Assembly: GCA_902793435.1 (NCBI GenBank)
Contig: CADBDF010000003.1
Span: forward strand, 26,167-90,166
Length of the DNA: 64,000 nt
Origin: an uncultured Pseudomonadota bacterium
GTDB taxonomy: Bacteria > Pseudomonadota > Alphaproteobacteria > Rs-D84
Reading direction: 5' to 3'
Positions 1 to 9,397 of this stretch are shown here, one piece after another (the stretch's first letter is position 1; every line of letters begins with the position of its first letter). Position numbers and translations under genes: made by a program. Below the pieces are notes generated by a model. That model saw only the letters and a program-made list of their open reading frames with translations. It searched no databases and was not told where the DNA came from.

Positions 1-304
1 ATCTTTACACGAAGATAAAGATGAAACCATTATTGAACCTGTGGCGACCAATTTAGACGAAACAGATTTGACATTGGAAAAATTAGCAAATGAATTTGTC
101 GAAAACCAAGACAAAATTGTCAATACCACGAAAAGTTCTGCGCGTGGTGGCAGAATTGGCAAGTTAAAAAATATTTTACCATTTAAAAAAGTTAAACATA
201 ATGACTCTGGTTTAATGGGTGACTTGTTTGGTTGGGCGGGTGTTGCCGCAAACGATGAAGAATTTGGCATACCTGACTTTTTCCCAACTGCCGCAAAAAA
301 ATAA
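1..304 (+). CDS. C-terminal part of a CDS entering from upstream; hypothetical protein
   Basis: The frame is open from base 2 to the stop at 302-304 (the track lists only 41-304). No motif recognised. Confidence 0.4.
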   Translation, partial: SLHEDKDETIIEPVATNLDETDLTLEKLANEFVENQDKIVNTTKSSARGGRIGKLKNILPFKKVKHNDSGLMGDLFGWAGVAANDEEFGIPDFFPTAAKK

Positions 305-316
305 GGCGAATAAACA

Positions 317-766
317 ATGCAAGACTTGGCTGAAATTGCACGAATATTAACCAAGGCAGGATATATTGTCAAAGACTGTCAGTTAGGTTTTATTTGCATC
401 GTTGATCCAACATGTATTTGGCCACCGTTGATGGATTTTATAAAAAATGCATGGATTGTTTTAACCACTATCACAGGTGTTTTGTTGGCCGGATGGGCAG
501 CGGTTTTATTGCGTGGCGCAACAAACGATTATGCAAAAAATTTAAAAACGTTGGTTTTAATGTTTGGTTTTTTATCATTGGCACTGCCCGCCGTAGATTT
601 TTTGGGTGGTGGCAAATTTGTTGTAAATCAATGTAATACTATGAAAATATCTTTGTCCCAAGTTCAAGAATTATCAAAGGCACGCGAATTTACGCAAAAA
701 CCCGAAGAATACGAAATTTTTGAAGTTATTGATTCTGCAACAGATGATCCAGAATTTAATTTTTAA
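317..766 (+). CDS. hypothetical membrane protein
   Basis: 149 aa with hydrophobic helices (WIVLTTITGVLLAGWAAVLL, LVLMFGFLSLALPAV). Starts 12 nt after the previous stop, so probably co-transcribed. Confidence 0.5.
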   Translation: MQDLAEIARILTKAGYIVKDCQLGFICIVDPTCIWPPLMDFIKNAWIVLTTITGVLLAGWAAVLLRGATNDYAKNLKTLVLMFGFLSLALPAVDFLGGGKFVVNQCNTMKISLSQVQELSKAREFTQKPEEYEIFEVIDSATDDPEFNF

Positions 767-1446
767 AAATGAAATAAAGTTAAATCTTTGGCTGATGAAA
801 CTTTGTTTTTTGTGACCAATAAATGATCACGAACATTTATACCCAATGGTTTTAGTGTATTATATAAATCTTCTGTGGCATCTATGTCTGGGGCTGAAAA
901 ATTACCGATATCATTTGGATGATTATGAACCAGTAAAATATTTGTTGCATTTAATTCCAATGCATGTTTGACAATTTCACGTGTATATATCGATGAAGCA
1001 TCAATGGTACCCACACTATGAACCTCGTCTTGTAACAAACGTAAATCATCGTCCATGTATAAAACATGGAATTCTTCTATATTTTTATTTGCCAACATCC
1101 ACATACAATAATTACGCAATTCTGTATCATTATGAAATATTGGACGTTCAACCAATTCGTTTCTGTATCCGGTCAAAATTATATCATGTATCAATTTTAT
1201 AAATATCGCGATATTGCGACCAACCCCAGGGAACGCAATTAAATCATTATATTGTGCCGTCAATATGTTTGACAATGAACCAAAATGTTCCAACATAGCA
1301 TGCGCCAATGGTCGCATATCACGACGCGGAACAACATAACTCAACATTAATTCTAATTTTTCATATTCGGCAAGTTTGTTGTCTAAAAACTTTTGCCGTA
1401 ATCTTTCCCTGTGTCCATTACGAAATTGCAAATTCAATGTCGCCAT
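763..1446 (-). CDS. radC: RadC-family JAB/MPN domain protein
   Basis: 227 aa. N-terminal helix-hairpin-helix (AFPGVGRNIAIFIKL) and C-terminal JAMM-like motif (LLVHNHPNDIGNFSAPDIDATEDL). Confidence 0.85.
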   Translation of the reverse strand: MATLNLQFRNGHRERLRQKFLDNKLAEYEKLELMLSYVVPRRDMRPLAHAMLEHFGSLSNILTAQYNDLIAFPGVGRNIAIFIKLIHDIILTGYRNELVERPIFHNDTELRNYCMWMLANKNIEEFHVLYMDDDLRLLQDEVHSVGTIDASSIYTREIVKHALELNATNILLVHNHPNDIGNFSAPDIDATEDLYNTLKPLGINVRDHLLVTKNKVSSAKDLTLFHF

Positions 1447-1452
1447 TTGGCT

Positions 1453-2214
1453 TTACACCATCTTTTCTGTAAATATAGTCACACCATCTTCGGTGATTCC
1501 CAATGTGTGTTCCCACTGTGCAGACAATCCACCATCAACAGTACGCGCCGTCCAACCATCTGCATCAATTTTACATTTTGGCGAACCTGTATTTATCATT
1601 GGTTCAATCGTAAATACCAATCCGGGAACCATTTTAACCCTATCCCACATTTTATCGTAAAAATGAAATATTTGTGGGTCATCGTGCATAACTTTACCAA
1701 TACCATGTCCAACAAAATCACGCGATATAGAAAATCCATGTGGTTTAACAACAGCCTCTATGGTTTTTCCAATTTCAGACAAAGGCACCCCGGGGGCACA
1801 TACCGCAATAGCCGCATTTAACGCATCTTGGCATGTTTGCACCAATTCACGAGCCACTGGTGACACATTACCAATCATAAACATACGCGACGCATCACCA
1901 TGAAAACCTTTGAATTCTGCGGTTAAATCAACATTAATAATATCACCATCTTTTAATATTTCATTATCGTTTGGAATACCATGCACAATAACATCATTAA
2001 CCGATGTGCAAATGTTTTTTGGGTATCCTTGGTATCCCAAATCCGAAGAACGCGCGCCATTTGCATGCAAAAATTCTGCAACCAATCTGTCGATTTCACC
2101 GGTTGAAATCCCGGCGCGAATATACGGTGTAATATAATCAAAACAACGCGCCACCAAATCACCAACCACACGCAAACGTTTAAAATCTTTGGGTGCATAT
2201 ACAGATGCCAGCAT
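1453..2214 (-). CDS. map: methionine aminopeptidase, type I
   Basis: 253 aa with canonical MetAP motifs (VHGIPN, GDIINVDL, FHGDASRMF, FVGHGIG, TIEPMIN, QWEHT). Confidence 0.95.
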   Translation of the reverse strand: MLASVYAPKDFKRLRVVGDLVARCFDYITPYIRAGISTGEIDRLVAEFLHANGARSSDLGYQGYPKNICTSVNDVIVHGIPNDNEILKDGDIINVDLTAEFKGFHGDASRMFMIGNVSPVARELVQTCQDALNAAIAVCAPGVPLSEIGKTIEAVVKPHGFSISRDFVGHGIGKVMHDDPQIFHFYDKMWDRVKMVPGLVFTIEPMINTGSPKCKIDADGWTARTVDGGLSAQWEHTLGITEDGVTIFTEKMV

Positions 2215-3203
2215 TATTTCCTCCTCTTTTGAGCCATTCTGGTTGTTTTTAATGCCAATTTTAATGAAAAGTCACGCAATAAAATTTCTGGTGGCATACC
2301 AGTTGTGCGCAACTGACGTTCCAGTTCATTTAACCTGATTAAGACAGAGTCTATATCGGGTTCTGTCCATATTTTTGTGGCACGTTGAAATTTATCAGCA
2401 ACCTTCCAAAACAGGCGTGGAAACTGACCATCAACGACCGCCGTTAATAATCTTTTAAAATGAATATCCAACATACGAATTAACATATTTGGTTCGATGT
2501 TATCATACATTAACCTGTCCAGCGCAGTCATTGTTTGCGAAACATAACCCGCCGTCAAAGAATACAAATAATCATCAATATCCGACCCAGATGTATCAGG
2601 CAAACATTTTTCAACATCTTCCAATTCTACGATTTTTTTATCGCCAACATACAGTGCAATTTTTGTTAAAAAACCACGTGTAATACCGCGATCGCCACCC
2701 ATGTGTGTTGTCATATATTCCATGGCGTCTGGGGTTATTTGATCTATACCAGATGCGGCAGACAATGTTTCGCGTATTAAATTTGCCAATGTGCGTGCAT
2801 CATCAGTATAACATGGCAACGCCGCCAAATTATCATCATTTTCAAATAAAGCACGCAATCCACCGCCGGCACGCAATTCACCCGCACATACGATAACAGT
2901 CGCACACAGACCAGCATGTGTCACCAATTCGCCAATTGTTTTAGCCATTGCATCGCCAGCATTGGAAATAACAACCATTTTTTGACCACCGAACATAGAT
3001 GGACTGCAACTTTCAGCAAATATTGCATCTTGTTTATCACGAAATTCATCGGCGTCCAAAGAAAATAAATTATCCCGGTCAATCTGTAAAATTTCGATTG
3101 CTTTATCGCACAACTCATCAACCTGACCGGCATCAGGTCCATAAATTAAAACTGCGCGAATATTTTTTATTCCGCTTTTAAAATCGGCTTCTTTCCATTT
3201 CAT
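2214..3203 (-). CDS. holA: DNA polymerase III delta subunit
   Basis: 329 aa. N-terminus has AVLIYGPDAGQVDE and the length fits HolA. Overlaps lptE by 4 nt and map by 1 nt, matching the conserved lptE-holA order. Confidence 0.75.
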   Translation of the reverse strand: MKWKEADFKSGIKNIRAVLIYGPDAGQVDELCDKAIEILQIDRDNLFSLDADEFRDKQDAIFAESCSPSMFGGQKMVVISNAGDAMAKTIGELVTHAGLCATVIVCAGELRAGGGLRALFENDDNLAALPCYTDDARTLANLIRETLSAASGIDQITPDAMEYMTTHMGGDRGITRGFLTKIALYVGDKKIVELEDVEKCLPDTSGSDIDDYLYSLTAGYVSQTMTALDRLMYDNIEPNMLIRMLDIHFKRLLTAVVDGQFPRLFWKVADKFQRATKIWTEPDIDSVLIRLNELERQLRTTGMPPEILLRDFSLKLALKTTRMAQKRRK

Positions 3204-3661
3204 TTGTTGGTCTGGCGCCCTTTTGTTTCTGCGATTGCGCGACTGCTGATTTTATCAGCCAACACCGACACCGCGTTTTGAACCGCGTTATTATATGATG
3301 CGTTTGCTGCAACCAAATAACGCACAAATGTATATGATTCACCCGCAGACTCGTTCCCAGATGCAATCAATTCATCACCCGCATATAGTTTATAATGCGC
3401 AGTCAATTTTACCGCCTGCCATGTGGCAGTTCCAGTTGTATCCAAACCTTTATATGTTTTCAAAGGTTCGTCCAAATCCACAACCAATTTATACATAGAA
3501 TTATCAGGATGCGCACCACCAAACTTTGCATTTAACGCATTACGCAATTCTATACCATTTATTCCACTTATTTTATCAACATAAATGTCTGTGTCGTTTC
3601 CAGAAAACATTGGCGTAAAACCACACCCAGACAACAATAAAAATGCAAATAATTTTTTCAT
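3200..3661 (-). CDS. lptE: LPS-assembly lipoprotein LptE-like
   Basis: 153 aa with a canonical lipobox (LLLSGCGF). Sits immediately upstream of and overlapping holA, as in proteobacteria. Confidence 0.6.
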   Translation of the reverse strand: MKKLFAFLLLSGCGFTPMFSGNDTDIYVDKISGINGIELRNALNAKFGGAHPDNSMYKLVVDLDEPLKTYKGLDTTGTATWQAVKLTAHYKLYAGDELIASGNESAGESYTFVRYLVAANASYNNAVQNAVSVLADKISSRAIAETKGRQTNK

Positions 3662-3747
3662 AAATTTTACTTTTGTTTTTTTGAAATGGTTTTCCTGTTG
3701 CTTTTTATGTTTATATTACCTACACTTTTTACAAATCGCAAGGGGGA

Positions 3748-4977
3748 ATGATGAATATTTTTTTAACGCTTTTGGTTGCTTTGTTTCTGGGGGCGTATTA
3801 CATATTTTCTGCGCCATCGGTGCGAACCCCCGCACAAGAGGCCGAATACGCGGTAAAATATGCAGACTTGCGTGCGATTATTGAATGTACCGCGGCGGTG
3901 CATAATGCAAATTTGCATAATACCGTATTCCAAGATGTATGTGTTGAACAAAACGGTATTCAATCTGATATTATCTGTTTAGACAGACGTATGAATATTA
4001 CCGGTTGTGCAGGAAACACAACATATAATTATGTTGTCACAACATCTGGGGTAATACCAAACAGTCAATTCAATAATACAATGACTATATTGGAAAAAAA
4101 TTTTGCCGATGCCGGCAGTTTCGGTATTTTCCAAGATGGATATATTATATCTGGTTCAACCGTCACTAAACGCGCAATACCAAAATCTTTGATAAATCAA
4201 ATGCACATAATGGACGGCCAATTGGTATATGTGACACAATTTGCGCAAACAGACCCCGCCGCACAATTTATCGCACCAAATGTTGATGATGTTGTGTGTC
4301 CGGTTGGAACATCAAAAATATTGCGTTTTGGTCGGTGGCAATGTGTTGGATACAATACAAAAACCAGTTGCCCCGGGGATACGGTATGGGATTATACAAC
4401 AAATTCTTGTGTTGCAGATGATACAACAAAGCCATTATGTAATTCTGTACAGACGGCTATTATGGTTGATGGAATTTGGGAATGTGTTGATCCGTTCCCC
4501 AGTCGCAAATGCGATGCAAATACTATGGCCAAGTTAAATTATACAACAATGACGTGGGAATGTGTGACAGACCCAAATAAAACTGCAACAAACACAAAAT
4601 GTTCGCATGTAAAGATGCCTGTTAGTCCTGGTCGTGGTGGTGCAACGATGAGTTTTAGAAAATTAACATGCACATCGTGTGAAAAAATGATTGTTGATGA
4701 AAACACATGTATCGCACATTGTGTGCCCGATACGACCAAGGTAAATGATGCCAACTGTTATCCAGGTGATGCGACAACATGTGTTGGCGAAAACATGGGA
4801 TTATATTTTGGTTTTCCTGATACAAAATATATTACATTTGTCCCAGATGTTGCTGGCAAAACAATTATTATGGGTACCGAACATTCACAAAACAGAAAGT
4901 TTAATTGTATGGATTGTGGCGAACGCGGTGTGGATACAGAATTATCATTTCCGCCATTTGTGACAGTGTGTAATTAG
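3748..4977 (+). CDS. Cys-rich secreted or membrane-anchored hypothetical protein
   Basis: 409 aa with an N-terminal hydrophobic segment (MMNIFLTLLVALFLGAYYIF) and more than 25 Cys. Motif W-x-C-V occurs three times (GRWQCVGY, GIWECVDP, MTWECVTDP). Confidence 0.6.
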   Translation: MMNIFLTLLVALFLGAYYIFSAPSVRTPAQEAEYAVKYADLRAIIECTAAVHNANLHNTVFQDVCVEQNGIQSDIICLDRRMNITGCAGNTTYNYVVTTSGVIPNSQFNNTMTILEKNFADAGSFGIFQDGYIISGSTVTKRAIPKSLINQMHIMDGQLVYVTQFAQTDPAAQFIAPNVDDVVCPVGTSKILRFGRWQCVGYNTKTSCPGDTVWDYTTNSCVADDTTKPLCNSVQTAIMVDGIWECVDPFPSRKCDANTMAKLNYTTMTWECVTDPNKTATNTKCSHVKMPVSPGRGGATMSFRKLTCTSCEKMIVDENTCIAHCVPDTTKVNDANCYPGDATTCVGENMGLYFGFPDTKYITFVPDVAGKTIIMGTEHSQNRKFNCMDCGERGVDTELSFPPFVTVCN

Positions 4978-5645
4978 TGTTGCCTTGTATTCGCGTCACC
5001 ACGCATTTTGTTTTTGTTATTTTCTGCGATTAACACAGATAAATAATTTTTAAAATCCACAAAACCCAACAGTTGTTCACAACAATTATTCAGCCGAGAA
5101 TTGTACATTTCCAATATGCGGTTATAATCATCAACTTCTTCGTCTTTTTCATACCTGGACATAGATTGATATGCCGCAGACGTTTGCCAACTAATAGCTT
5201 CATTGACTTCATGTATTTTTAATAACAATTGAAAAACCTCTTTTAACAAACCCAAAATAACAGACTGTTGTTGGATATTGTATAAATTTTCAAGTTGGTT
5301 TTGTATGTCTTGGTGTTGTTTAGAAAAATTATCATATTGGTCTGTATAAAACCCAACCAATTTATTATCGCCACGCACAGTATTTAATTCACCATCACCG
5401 TTGAAAACAAATCTGTCATATTCGTGCATAATCTGCATCATTTTGCCAGACAAAAATTCTTTTTTATTTTTCAACGCAGTTATTTTTTTATTAATATCTT
5501 GAATATTTGGAGACACGCGCTTTTCAAAATATTTAATCAAATTTTGCACATTATCAACAATTACGTTTTGTGATAACGCCTTTGTTTTTGTATCATTAAA
5601 TTTGTTTGTATCTGCCACGATTCTTTCCTTTATCACTTTACACAT
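4974..5645 (-). CDS. hypothetical protein (probable coiled coil)
   Basis: 223-aa ORF rich in K/E/Q/N heptad-like stretches. No recognisable domain. Overlaps the convergent gene by 4 nt. Confidence 0.45.
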   Translation of the reverse strand: MCKVIKERIVADTNKFNDTKTKALSQNVIVDNVQNLIKYFEKRVSPNIQDINKKITALKNKKEFLSGKMMQIMHEYDRFVFNGDGELNTVRGDNKLVGFYTDQYDNFSKQHQDIQNQLENLYNIQQQSVILGLLKEVFQLLLKIHEVNEAISWQTSAAYQSMSRYEKDEEVDDYNRILEMYNSRLNNCCEQLLGFVDFKNYLSVLIAENNKNKMRGDANTRQH

Positions 5646-5702
5646 TATATGTAATACATTTTGCGCTTTTTGTCAATATATTATTTCTTTTTATTCTTAG
5701 TT

Positions 5703-5750: not shown

Positions 5751-5931
5751 TTTTTTACATATTTCGAATCGTGTTTTTTTATATTTTTTTGTATTTTTAC
5801 ATACAAATACGTGTTTTGTGTCAATTTTATAACGATTCGTAGTAAAAAAAATGGCGGATTTTATGCCTTTTTTTAATGCAAGTAAAAAAATATAAAAAAT
5901 TGTTTTTTTCTGGGTTGAGATTATTTTCTAT

Positions 5932-5979
5932 ATACTATATATTGTTATCAACAAAATCAAAAAACACTATATATAGATT
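5932..5979. promoter_or_regulatory. proximal pair of NrdR boxes upstream of nrdD
   Basis: atactatatattgtta (5932-5947) and acactatatatagatt (5964-5979), centres 32 bp apart, ending 14 nt before the nrdD ATG. Confidence 0.6.
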
Positions 5980-5992
5980 TAAGGAAAGAAAG

Positions 5993-7987
5993 ATGGGTGA
6001 ATTGAATTTTATTACAAAACAAACAAAAATTGTTAAACGTTCTGGCGAAACGGTCGATTTTGATGCCAACAAAATTTATAATGCGGTTTCCAAGGCCGTT
6101 GCTGCAACTGGCGAATTAAATGATGCCCAGGTTTTTACAATTACTCAATTTGTATTGAATAAATTGGATATCGCGTTTGTTGATAAAATTCCAACTGTCG
6201 AACAAATCCAAGATACAGTTGTTCAAACCCTGATGGATTCACGCGCATACAAAACAGCCGAGGCATATGTTATATATCGCCAAAAACGCAGTGAAATTCG
6301 CGATGCGTCCATTGATGCCGTTGATGTTATCGATGGTTATGTGACCGAGGCTGACTGGCGTGTCAAAGAAAACGCAAACATTGGTTATTCTATTGGTGGG
6401 TTAATTTTACGCACCAGCGAACGCGTGACCGCAGAATATTGGTTGCACCTGTACCCCCAAGAAATCGCGGCGGCACACAAACGCGCATCTATACATATTC
6501 ACGATTTAGGTTGGTTGTCTGGTTATTGCGCGGGTTGGTCTTTGCGCGAATTGTTATACGAAGGATTCAATGGGGTCCCAGGTTATTTACAATGTGGTCC
6601 TGCAAAACACATGGCGACAGCTATTTCGCACATGGTGAATTTCTTAGGCACATTACAAAATGAATTCGCAGGTGCTCAGGCGTTTTCATCTGTTGATACA
6701 TATTTGGCACCGTATGTTCGTTTAGACAAGTTGTCATACGAAGATGTTAAAAATTCTATGCAGACATTGATATTTAATTGTGCTGTGCCATGCCGTTGGG
6801 GAACACAAACACCATTTATCAACTTTACATTTGATTGGACATGCCCAACAGATTTGCGCCCACAACGTCCATTTGTCGGTGGCAAACAGGTTGATTTCAC
6901 ATATGGTGATTTGCAGGAAGAAATGGATATGATTAACAAAGCGTTTTTGGAAGTCATGACCGAAGGTGATGCAATGGGTCGTCCATTTACATTCCCTATT
7001 CCAACATACAATATCACACCTGATTTTCCATGGAATCACCCAAATGTAAAACCTTTGTTTGATTTGGCGGCGAAATACGGTATTCCAAACTTTCAAAACT
7101 TCTTGAATTCCGATTTGAACCCAACAGATGTTCGCTCTATGTGTTGCCGGTTGCGTTTGGACGTTCGTGAATTGTTAAAACGTGGTGGCGGTTTATTTGG
7201 TTCGGCGGAAAAAACTGGTTCTATTGGTGTGGTCACAATTAACTTGGCACGTTTGGGTTATTTACACAAAGGCGACCGCGAAGGTTTGTTCCGCGAATTA
7301 CAATCTTTGTTATTCATGGGGCGCGATGCATTGGAAATCAAACGCAAAATTATTTCCAAGAATATGGAACGCGGTTTGTATCCATTTACCAAACGTTATT
7401 TGGGTAATTGGAATCATCACTTTTCTACAATCGGTGTAAATGGCGCAAATGAAATGGTTGCAAACTTTACAAACGGTGCGGAAAATATCGCAACAGTGTT
7501 TGGTAAAAAACTGGTCTTGGACGTTATGGATTTCATCCGTGAAAACTTGGCAAACTTCCAAGAAGAAACTGGCAACCTGTATAATTTAGAGGCTACTCCA
7601 GCCGAGGGATGTTCATATCGTTTCGCAAAAACAGATAAAAAGAACTATCCGGATATTATTACCGCTGGGACCCCAGATGCCCCATACTATACAAATTCAA
7701 CCCAGTTGCCTGTGAATTATACAGACGATCCGTTTGTGGCATTGGAACACCAAGAAGAATTACAACGCAAATATACAGGCGGAACAATGTTGCATCTGTA
7801 TATGGGCGAACCTGTATCAAATGGCGAAGCGGCACAGAAAATCGTACGGACTATATTTGAAAATTATAAAGTGCCATATATGACATTGACACCAACATTT
7901 TCAATATGTCCAAAGCATGGTTATTTGCCTGGACGTCATGAGTTTTGTCCAAAATGCGATGCGGAACGCGGCGCAAACGACAAATAA
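5993..7987 (+). CDS. nrdD: anaerobic ribonucleoside-triphosphate reductase (class III), large part lacking the glycyl-radical domain
   Basis: N-terminal ATP-cone (IVKRSGETVDFDANKIYNAV), then a NrdD core and the first Zn-ribbon Cys pair (FCPKCD) just before the stop. Start placed at ATG 5993 (AAGGAAAG 6 nt upstream), because the track start at 5876 would read through the NrdR boxes. Confidence 0.9.
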   Translation: MGELNFITKQTKIVKRSGETVDFDANKIYNAVSKAVAATGELNDAQVFTITQFVLNKLDIAFVDKIPTVEQIQDTVVQTLMDSRAYKTAEAYVIYRQKRSEIRDASIDAVDVIDGYVTEADWRVKENANIGYSIGGLILRTSERVTAEYWLHLYPQEIAAAHKRASIHIHDLGWLSGYCAGWSLRELLYEGFNGVPGYLQCGPAKHMATAISHMVNFLGTLQNEFAGAQAFSSVDTYLAPYVRLDKLSYEDVKNSMQTLIFNCAVPCRWGTQTPFINFTFDWTCPTDLRPQRPFVGGKQVDFTYGDLQEEMDMINKAFLEVMTEGDAMGRPFTFPIPTYNITPDFPWNHPNVKPLFDLAAKYGIPNFQNFLNSDLNPTDVRSMCCRLRLDVRELLKRGGGLFGSAEKTGSIGVVTINLARLGYLHKGDREGLFRELQSLLFMGRDALEIKRKIISKNMERGLYPFTKRYLGNWNHHFSTIGVNGANEMVANFTNGAENIATVFGKKLVLDVMDFIRENLANFQEETGNLYNLEATPAEGCSYRFAKTDKKNYPDIITAGTPDAPYYTNSTQLPVNYTDDPFVALEHQEELQRKYTGGTMLHLYMGEPVSNGEAAQKIVRTIFENYKVPYMTLTPTFSICPKHGYLPGRHEFCPKCDAERGANDK

Positions 7988-8037
7988 AAACAATCAAAAT
8001 TAACAAAAAAAACACAACCAAAGGAAGGAGGAAAATT

Positions 8038-8229
8038 ATGACTAACACAAACTGCAACTGCGACAGAACAAAATGCGAAGTATTTTCACGTTCTATGGGC
8101 TTTATTCGTCCTGTATCGAACTTTAACATTGGAAAATATAGCGAATTTTGCGAACGCAAGACTTTTACAGAAGCAAACAGTTTGACGGCTGGTCAAAGAC
8201 ACTCTGACCTGATGAAAAGAGCGGCTTAA
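8038..8229 (+). CDS. stand-alone NrdD C-terminal glycyl-radical domain (63 aa)
   Basis: MTNTNCNCDRTKCEVFSRSMGFIRPVSNFNIGKYSEFCERK matches the NrdD C-terminus (second Cys pair plus the SRxxG(Y/F)xRPVxxxNxGKxxEF radical loop). Different frame from nrdD. GGAGG at 8027-8031 lies 6 nt before the ATG. Confidence 0.75.
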   Translation: MTNTNCNCDRTKCEVFSRSMGFIRPVSNFNIGKYSEFCERKTFTEANSLTAGQRHSDLMKRAA

Positions 8230-8233
8230 TATT

Positions 8234-8935
8234 ATGCGCGAAATTCAAATTGGGGGATTGGTTTCTTTTACCACTATCGATTATCCTGACAAATTGGCTG
8301 CTGTGCTGTTTTTGGTTGGGTGCCCGTTAAGATGTGCGTATTGTTCCAATCCTCATTTAATTGATGTTGGCGATGGTCCATACGACCCTGAAAAGATGTT
8401 TGATTGGATTAAATCACGTGTCGGTCGTTTAGAGGCCATCGTTTTTTCTGGTGGCGAGGCATTAATGCAAGGTGATGCCACAATTGGTTATATGCAACGT
8501 GTGCGTGATTTAGGGTTCGCGATTGGATTGCATACAAACGGTTTTTATCCAGATTTGTTAAAACGCGCCGAACCATTGGTCGATTGGATTGGATTGGATT
8601 ACAAGGCCACACGCGAAAAGTATGAATCTTTGGTGGGAAAAGGTATTGCATACGACCAAATGATAAAATCTTTGGATTTTTGGATTGGAACCGGCAAAGA
8701 TTTAGAGGTTCGCGTGACGTGTGACCCACGTTTTATAACACTGGACGATTTGCGTAAAATTATTGACGATTGTGCGGTGCGTGGTGTAAAAAAAATCGCG
8801 ATACAAAAATATCAACCACATTTCGAAGATGCAGAACACGCAACCACCCCAGAAGCACGCGACCAGTTTTTCAAAGATGACGATTTACGCAATTATATAA
8901 ATTCAAAATTTGAATCTGTAATTTGGCGGGAATAA
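8234..8935 (+). CDS. nrdG: anaerobic ribonucleotide reductase activating protein (radical SAM)
   Basis: 233 aa with the CxxxCxxC cluster motif (GCPLRCAYCSNPH) and a GGE motif (FSGGEALMQ). Directly follows nrdD. Confidence 0.85.
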   Translation: MREIQIGGLVSFTTIDYPDKLAAVLFLVGCPLRCAYCSNPHLIDVGDGPYDPEKMFDWIKSRVGRLEAIVFSGGEALMQGDATIGYMQRVRDLGFAIGLHTNGFYPDLLKRAEPLVDWIGLDYKATREKYESLVGKGIAYDQMIKSLDFWIGTGKDLEVRVTCDPRFITLDDLRKIIDDCAVRGVKKIAIQKYQPHFEDAEHATTPEARDQFFKDDDLRNYINSKFESVIWRE

Positions 8936-8938
8936 TAT

Positions 8939-9397
8939 ATGCAAAAAGAAATTAAATTTTGTACACCATCTGGACCTTATTGGTTTTTATCACCGCTGGC
9001 TTTGTTCCCCATCAAAATGCATGTAGATGGCCAGGATTTTGTTTTTCCATCGGTAGAGCATTATTACCAAGCGATGAAATTTTACGCATCTGACCCGCGT
9101 TTTAATACTATTTTACAACTAAAAAACCCTGATGATGCGCGGTTATTGACCAAGACACCAGAATACAAGGTTAATCGTCGGGAAAATTTTGATAATGATA
9201 AATTCGATATTATGGAACGCGGATTGCGTGCAAAGTTTGCACAAAATCCCGACGCCGCAGAATTATTAAAATCCACAGGCGATGCGATTTTAATAAAATC
9301 TTGTCCGGTATGCTATAAATGCGGATTTGGAATCGGCAGTGGCACAAACCGTATTGGGAAAATATTGATGGATATACGCCAAAATTTGCAAAAATAA
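8939..9397 (+). CDS. NADAR (YbiA-like, DUF1768) domain protein
   Basis: 152 aa with FLSPLALFPI, FPSVEHYYQAMKF and RAKFAQNPDAAELLKSTGDAIL, typical of the NADAR family. Starts 4 nt after nrdG. Confidence 0.7.
   Translation: MQKEIKFCTPSGPYWFLSPLALFPIKMHVDGQDFVFPSVEHYYQAMKFYASDPRFNTILQLKNPDDARLLTKTPEYKVNRRENFDNDKFDIMERGLRAKFAQNPDAAELLKSTGDAILIKSCPVCYKCGFGIGSGTNRIGKILMDIRQNLQK

Follow-up and report, generated by a model that had tools for sequence, protein, structure and literature searches.

How can an anaerobic ribonucleotide reductase (RNR) work when the loop that carries its glycyl radical is encoded outside the catalytic chain? This question is raised by the nrdD locus of an uncultured gut bacterium of the Alphaproteobacteria (Rs-D84), known from a metagenome-assembled genome (MAG), on whose contig CADBDF010000003.1 we analysed a stretch of 64,000 nt, hereafter the window; all coordinates are those of the window, and the genes and elements of the locus lie on its plus strand. 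Here nrdD, the gene for the large chain, ends before the radical loop, which follows as a separate open reading frame (ORF) of its own ahead of the activase gene nrdG. We argue from the sequences and their comparison that the locus very probably specifies an obligate two-subunit class III RNR, a functional enzyme made of two chains.

The large chain (5993-7987; 664 aa) comprises an ATP-cone, a catalytic barrel and a complete zinc ribbon, without a glycyl-radical loop. It matches positions 1-530 of the 562 in PF13597 (E 1.4e-170) and positions 3-650 of the 684 in NF006126/PRK08270 (1031 bits, cut-off 548). Its C-terminus reads ...FCPKCDAERGANDK and then stop, or, given at length, ...SICPKHGYLPGRHEFCPKCDAERGANDK and then stop; the chain terminates nine residues past the zinc ribbon, and no RxxG[YF] radical loop is present on it. 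The ATP-cone occupies residues 12-101 (6026-6295; PF03477, E 9.4e-21). The cysteine pair of the finger loop, Cys384-Cys385 (7142-7147), is set in the motif SMCCRL and is invariant in a 36-row alignment (A2); SMCCRL is the equivalent of the SCCR motif of T. maritima NrdD, which has been discussed previously (PMC4493059). Downstream comes an A-rich spacer of 50 nt (7988-8037, by direct reading), which includes a run of eight A and offsets the frame by +2 between nrdD and the small ORF, and whose GGAGG Shine-Dalgarno (SD) sequence at 8027-8031 ends 6 nt upstream of the ATG at 8038. The small ORF (8038-8229; 63 aa) encodes the loop alone (..CEVFSRSMGFIRPV..) as its own polypeptide. Its match to the NrdD models is confined to their last ~37 positions (526-562 in PF13597 and 643-682 in PRK08270), and PF13597 is its sole match in Pfam at E up to 0.1, with no homology to PF01228. 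The predicted radical site, Gly21 in RSMGF (codon at 8098-8100), is invariant in an alignment of 38 diverse homologues (A1) and aligns with RVxGY of fused NrdDs. Jointly, the large and the small ORF span the NrdD model without loss. The start of nrdG (8234-8935), which encodes a radical-SAM activase (TIGR02495, NrdG2, 158.7 bits against a cut-off of 131.15; PF04055), lies 4 nt past the stop of the small ORF, and neither a terminator nor a promoter match above chance was found in the spacer and the intergenic region of nrdD, the small ORF and nrdG. A preliminary description of this DNA had nrdD ending before the loop and a 63-aa ORF 50 nt further on, in another frame and behind a GGAGG with 6-nt spacing, and both the coordinates and the sequences were confirmed.

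Where exactly does the break fall? The same description had divided the zinc ribbon between the two ORFs, and in this it was mistaken. The ribbon, C639-P-K-H642-x9-C652-P-K-C655 (7907-7957), is wholly on the large chain and its C, H, C and C are invariant in A2. That these four residues make a complete ribbon follows from three comparisons: an alignment with P. copri NrdD (8p23) pairs CPKH/CPKC of the large chain with CLDC/CPKC; fused proteobacterial relatives read VCDTHGYLSGEQPECPRCRAKTKVWTRVMGYFRPV, that is C-x2-H-x9-C-P-x-C, with the glycine 12 residues on; and the zinc motif of T. maritima NrdD, CxxxHx6CxxC, is placed after the final strand of the barrel and before the radical loop (PMC4493059). 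The supposed second Cys pair on the small ORF, C6 and C8, is missing in 59 of 77 congeners, and among the N-terminal cysteines of the small ORF only C13 is conserved. The alignment of homologues over the gap, which had been proposed as a check, places the break within an insert peculiar to one clade: all members of the clade of split enzymes described below, including its three fused ones, carry 17-48 residues between ribbon and loop, terminating in (E)RQxC-EVW, of which (E)RQxC is a new conserved motif, and the gene break falls within this insert. Large chains run 9-20 variable residues past the ribbon, and small chains start 5-12 variable residues before the conserved loop. Judging from these alignments, the two-chain version misses only the covalent link. 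A split intein with trans-splicing was considered and rejected, as there are no intein halves (~100 aa for the N-part, ~35 aa for the C-part) or extra domains at the break. As for Cys13 (8074-8076), it stands within (E)RQxC, three residues before the W/F of EVW/EVF; it is invariant in the small chains of the split clade and in the fused members of that clade, and absent from outgroup fused NrdDs. A role as metal ligand, in redox chemistry or in docking are possibilities.

The small chain is a conserved protein. A search with the small ORF returned 304 proteins of 57-93 aa, many of them from contigs longer than 100 kb, and a further search 1694 small homologues; when 1.84 billion cluster representatives were searched with a profile, 1137 matched at E up to 1e-10, and the best 150 of those clusters were all proteins of 54-153 aa. 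No true match to the small chain was found in the PDB, either with the single sequence or with a profile. Fifteen positions of A1 are invariant, namely R10, C13, E14, R18, M20, G21, R24, F29, N30, G32, K33, E36, E39, R40 and F43. The pairwise dN/dS of the small ORF was 0.06 at dS ~1.4, and that of the last 120 codons of the large chain 0.016; both parts are under purifying selection. Together with an SD sequence retained in 76 of 77 congeners, the value of 0.06 bears out the earlier view that the split is not simple decay. The Phe after the glycine, to which attention had also been drawn, is indeed present here but is not singular: among 77 Enterousia the residue is F in 69 and Y in 8, with Y in other families, a conservative change at the level of the genus. 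The tails of the small chains (8170-8226; A1 columns 55-73) are family-specific and conserved within a family, ending ..LMKKAA in Enterousia and ..D[IV]AAE in other families; this tail may be an extra docking element.

We then asked how regularly the arrangement recurs. A search for homologues of the large chain returned congeners alone, at 89% identity or more, and so offered no contrast between fused and split forms; the comparison was therefore made on the loci themselves. In Candidatus Enterousia the set comprised 77 analysable species loci from gut and rumen MAGs, and all 77 showed the arrangement; a scan of genome contigs likewise led to Enterousia loci only. Recurrence on this scale, here and across the order, goes far beyond chance. 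The spacer measures 20-59 nt and its sequence is not conserved apart from the SD sequence ahead of the small-ORF ATG; the frame offsets 0, 1 and 2 occur in 30, 27 and 20 loci, respectively. The small ORF has 56-65 codons, nrdG mostly opens 2-6 nt past its stop, and the small chain is single-copy in this genome and in nearly all Enterousia. Across the order, a match to the small gene was obtained in 129 of 151 genomes, every time in a short open frame. The small gene was missing from 20 genomes of the order: 18 of these are also without NrdD, in one a contig end truncates NrdD, and one carries a different, canonical fused NrdD; bar these last two, the genomes that lack the small gene lack NrdD, and NrdD and the small gene thus co-occur strictly. 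Three of the 18 NrdD-less genomes (G048, G090, G120, G036, G054, G066 and 12 more) belong to the same genus and are 95-97% complete. In one genus of the same family (G067) the order of genes differs: a small gene of 67 aa is followed after 437 nt by nrdD (673 aa) and after a further 390 nt by nrdG. Therefore the small gene is an independent cistron, and no recoding could join the two chains there. This locus, with the small gene upstream of nrdD, is L271 (G067:C14:5500-12500), positions 1788-5693.

Looking for the split in related genomes had likewise been suggested, and it extends far beyond this order. Among 401 alphaproteobacterial genomes sampled, 47 had a match, of which ~32 were short frames (53-128 aa) from at least 20 families and ~15 were long fused frames; the alphaproteobacterial loci that we fetched had the operon nrdD-small-nrdG throughout. 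The same operon is found in high-GC Beta- and Gammaproteobacteria, whose small proteins were named by exact sequence look-ups and from a plasmid collection. That of Pseudomonas aeruginosa has 48 aa, is present in more than 1000 contigs and is labelled 'anaerobic ribonucleoside-triphosphate reductase' or 'oxidoreductase', and in strain PAO1 its ORF lies between nrdD and nrdG; others are those of Stutzerimonas stutzeri (55 aa), Halomonas/Vreelandella (54 aa), Massilia/Pseudoduganella (59 aa), Pelomonas/Piscinibacter (74 aa) and Sulfuricystis (57 aa). In the plasmid collection the small gene occurs in 163 records, including Ralstonia solanacearum megaplasmids, Bradyrhizobium, Paracoccus and Allochromatium. 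On pHG1 of Cupriavidus necator H16, RefSeq has a 676-aa 'ribonucleoside triphosphate reductase', a 66-aa coding sequence (H16_RS32675) and the activase consecutively, on a plasmid whose nrdD the strain needs to grow anaerobically with nitrate; the name nrdD is given there to the 66-aa ORF, and the 676-aa catalytic chain is left unnamed (NC_005241.1; locus L184, 771-3847). Many small ORFs have already been called by genome annotation pipelines, and in many R. solanacearum megaplasmid records the small ORF is unannotated.

In a tree of 45 large chains all 32 split sequences fall in one clade with 100/100 support, together with three fused ones, and the remaining ten fused sequences, which are without ATP-cone, form the other clade; the tree requires at least two changes between the split and the fused state. 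Judging from this distribution, the split state is old and common to many Alpha-, Beta- and Gammaproteobacteria, model organisms included, and is not a peculiarity of this one genome. One of the fused sequences (L032, from G355) has within its linker (codons 674-704) an in-frame ATG with AGAAAGG 7 nt upstream, at the point where small chains begin (MDAHLPDDQRQKCEVW...). This would be compatible with a re-fusion, though it is not proof of one, or the ATG may be an internal start from which a free small chain is still produced.

What would such an enzyme do in this cell? In the mechanism that we propose, nrdD(large), nrdD(small) and nrdG would be transcribed as a single operon; the large chain would give the ATP-cone, the barrel including its finger-loop cysteines, and the whole of the zinc ribbon, and the 63-aa small chain, translated from its own SD sequence and ATG, would supply the loop with Gly21. 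NrdG would abstract a hydrogen atom from Gly21 while the peptide is free or once the complex has formed, and the loop would be placed in the barrel beside Cys384/385 as in single-chain NrdD, presumably held there non-covalently. The two-chain enzyme would be the only route of the cell to deoxyribonucleotides. The source genome (898 kb, 97.8% complete) was found to contain no class I or class II reductase (PF02867), and no protein of the pyruvate formate-lyase (PFL) type (PF01228) or other glycyl-radical enzyme. Since both PF02867 and PF01228 are absent, the split enzyme is the only RNR and the small chain is left without any other possible partner; a partner role for another glycyl-radical enzyme was rejected on the same ground. 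With a large chain that has no Gly loop and a genome without another reductase or glycyl-radical enzyme, the earlier proposal of a radical domain acting in trans as the sole radical source has stood up, and we consider it the best reading of the locus.

Structure prediction was made with AlphaFold2 (AF2) on a pseudo-fusion from a congener (L059) whose two ORFs are in frame, with the TAA read as G, using the 36-row alignment. Its core matches solved class III reductases, with template-modelling (TM) scores of 0.74 to 4COI and 0.75 to 1HK8, and also matches 9D3X. The predicted local distance difference test (pLDDT) value of the pseudo-fusion, with a mean of 71.9 overall, was below 50 in the small-chain part and in the finger loop; a natural fused viral NrdD, run as control with the same rows, likewise gave values below 50 in both regions, so that at this alignment depth the model speaks neither for nor against docking. 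Two points weigh against the two-subunit explanation. That a loop of ~45 residues would be kept in the barrel non-covalently is something which we infer from homology alone, and the split clade takes in two fused lineages, which indicates that fusion is not strongly disfavoured.

The small gene is not confined to the operon. Some alphaproteobacterial genomes (~2 Mb) hold 3-5 copies of the small chain, one in the operon and the rest unlinked (multi-copy loci L035, L036, L037, L039 and L047, in G168, G348 and G478, and L185 and L187-L190). In one unlinked type the neighbours are an autotransporter gene on one side and a phospholipase gene (phospholipase C) on the other; another unlinked copy is in a prophage, where it adjoins lysozyme, a 3384-aa ddrB-ParB/ART-PolyVal polyvalent protein and tail genes. 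Among 80 loci from IMG/VR, the small gene stood alone in 54, a fused NrdD with NrdG was present in 22 and a split pair in 4. The lone viral genes, all within loci L192-L270 (e.g. L194 3989-4222, L199 3980-4159 and L212 3929-4321), adjoin tail-fibre and terminase genes, and those of L194, L199 and L204 carry an Enterousia-like motif, CEVFSRSMG[YF]IRP. We checked 30 phage records with a lone gene, among which 15 reach 90% completeness or more and 10 have terminal repeats: their sole match to the NrdD model was at positions ~530-562, and the catalytic NrdD body was absent from all 30. All 54 lone phage copies were closest to small chains of the split type from hosts (median 77.6 bits; fused C-termini gave 61 and 57), a result which is biased toward the split type, as the viral scan patterns were derived from split-type sequences. 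One viral locus with a split NrdD (L255, IMG/VR, 2-3937) has a large ORF of 1311 aa, about twice the usual length, followed by a small chain of 61 aa; a fusion or an intein within the large ORF may account for its length.

Could the two ORFs nevertheless give one chain, or the split be no more than an error? Recoding over the A-rich spacer, whether by programmed frameshift, read-through or bypass, would yield a single fused NrdD, and a gap of only 50 nt with an A8 run, along with fused relatives that have a linker at the break position, would suit this. We nevertheless regard it as most improbable, since the three frame offsets are spread over 30, 27 and 20 species, the spacers differ in length and share nothing except the SD sequence, several of them contain multiple in-frame stops, and what is conserved is precisely an SD sequence with its ATG; furthermore, the small gene lies upstream of nrdD in G067 and alone in phages. 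The chance that an indel from sequencing or assembly, or a mutation that recently made the gene a pseudogene, explains the split is next to nil. The MAG source and the homopolymer in the spacer would allow for such an error, but the same split is seen in hundreds of independent assemblies, closed genomes and plasmids among them, and decay is contradicted by purifying selection on both parts of what is the genome's only reductase; the comparative data refute artefact and decay alike. It might also be argued that the small protein does not dock in the large chain at all and serves as a regulator or decoy of NrdG, the large chain receiving its radical by another route. Docking is a prediction from homology, on which the AF2 model, with a pLDDT below 50 in the small-chain part as in the fused control, does not bear. 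On the other hand, the radical motif and the flanking residues of every NrdD are invariant in the small chain, the large chain keeps its finger-loop Cys pair without a Gly loop of its own, and the two genes co-occur strictly, which makes this explanation very unlikely. We know of no alternative radical source for class III reductases.

A further explanation extends the two-subunit enzyme and does not exclude it. The small chain might be an exchangeable 'radical cartridge' or spare part, by which a glycyl-radical peptide cleaved by oxygen is replaced without remaking the 76-kDa body, with paralogues and phages as suppliers. Three observations speak for it: the 3-5 copies per genome in some families, some of them unlinked and one lying in a prophage beside lysis and tail genes; the 54 of 80 viral loci in which the small gene is alone, with no NrdD body in any of the 30 records checked; and the closeness of all 54 lone phage copies to host small chains of the split type. 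Whether such parts exist outside PFL is called an open question in a 2026 review (PMC13450708). However, the phage similarity suffers from the bias of the split-type scan patterns, and the single copy here and in nearly all Enterousia means that in this genome the small chain is simply a regular subunit. We therefore treat the spare-part explanation as speculative and rather unlikely. Its wider form, in which a large share of Proteobacteria would have a two-component class III RNR whose free peptide of 48-75 residues is charged by NrdG off the enzyme, exchangeable, and supplied by phages or paralogues, is one that we also doubt.

Returning to the two-subunit enzyme, how does it compare with known systems? 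The single-chain NrdD/NrdG pairs of phage T4 (1H78/1HK8), T. maritima (4COI/4U3E), P. copri (8P23) and S. thermophilus (9D3X) have a homologous barrel, ATP-cone, finger-loop cysteines and zinc ribbon, and share with the split system the RxxG[YF] loop and an adjacent activase of the NrdG2 type; in fused proteobacterial relatives the linker is the only difference. By sequence, then, the enzyme is a class III RNR in every feature tested except that its loop is off the catalytic chain, and its activity is predicted accordingly. In all single-chain enzymes solved or studied the glycine is on the same chain, whereas here it is on a separate product with the (E)RQxC insert. A functional parallel exists with two autonomous glycyl-radical cofactors, GrcA/YfiD of E. 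coli and Y06I of phage T4, which are activated by the cognate activase and act in trans on the PFL barrel (PMC13450708). Like the small chain, these are free-standing loop proteins, with a phage-borne version too (PMC13450708). The parallel with GrcA/YfiD that had been drawn for this locus holds as far as a small free-standing radical-loop protein is concerned, but not in descent or in partner: GrcA is homologous to the C-terminus of PFL (PF01228) and backs up an enzyme that has its own glycine, whereas the small chain is of the NrdD type, without homology to PF01228, and the radical glycine is lacking from its partner.

Division of a reductase over several chains has other precedents. The class II enzyme of P. 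aeruginosa, NrdJa/NrdJb (PMC4860495), also has its catalytic chain encoded by two adjacent genes, in the same species that has the class III split, but it belongs to a different, B12-dependent class and has a different break point; in the paper concerned class III is simply 'nrdDG', and class II is the only one presented as split (PMC4860495). In class I enzymes, too, the stable radical is stored off the catalytic-barrel chain, on an unrelated ferritin-like beta subunit with a tyrosyl or metal radical and long-range transfer to alpha, in contrast to the homologous loop that presumably enters straight into the barrel here. In the open literature we found no description of a two-chain class III layout, subscription papers, including the 1999 paper on pHG1 nrdD, being outside the search.

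These observations bear on how class III enzymes are studied. Structural and mechanistic work on them assumes a tethered glycine and a whole glycyl-radical domain which flips out to the activase; a natural enzyme with the loop as a free peptide would offer an experimental handle on activation, docking and oxygen damage. The June 2026 review describes spare-part proteins as known only for formate-lyases, others being 'yet to be determined' (PMC13450708), and the present system bears on this question of separate radical carriers for glycyl-radical enzymes beyond PFL. If the two-subunit explanation is true, an ORF of 48-66 codons, often unannotated and dropped by length-filtered reductase surveys, would have to be expressed together with the 'NrdD' of P. 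aeruginosa, C. necator H16, R. solanacearum, Bradyrhizobium and many gut Alphaproteobacteria for these proteins to be active. Complete phage genomes with a lone copy point to a novel type of auxiliary metabolic gene, and were the cartridge explanation true as well, the small chain would be the first example, outside PFL, of a spare-part or auxiliary radical subunit.

Two further features flank the operon. A promoter-like site is present at 5915-5943, upstream of nrdD. At the other end, 4 nt past nrdG and on the same strand, lies a gene for a NADAR-domain protein (8939-9397; PF08719, E 1.3e-22), which may be part of the nrdD-nrdG operon.

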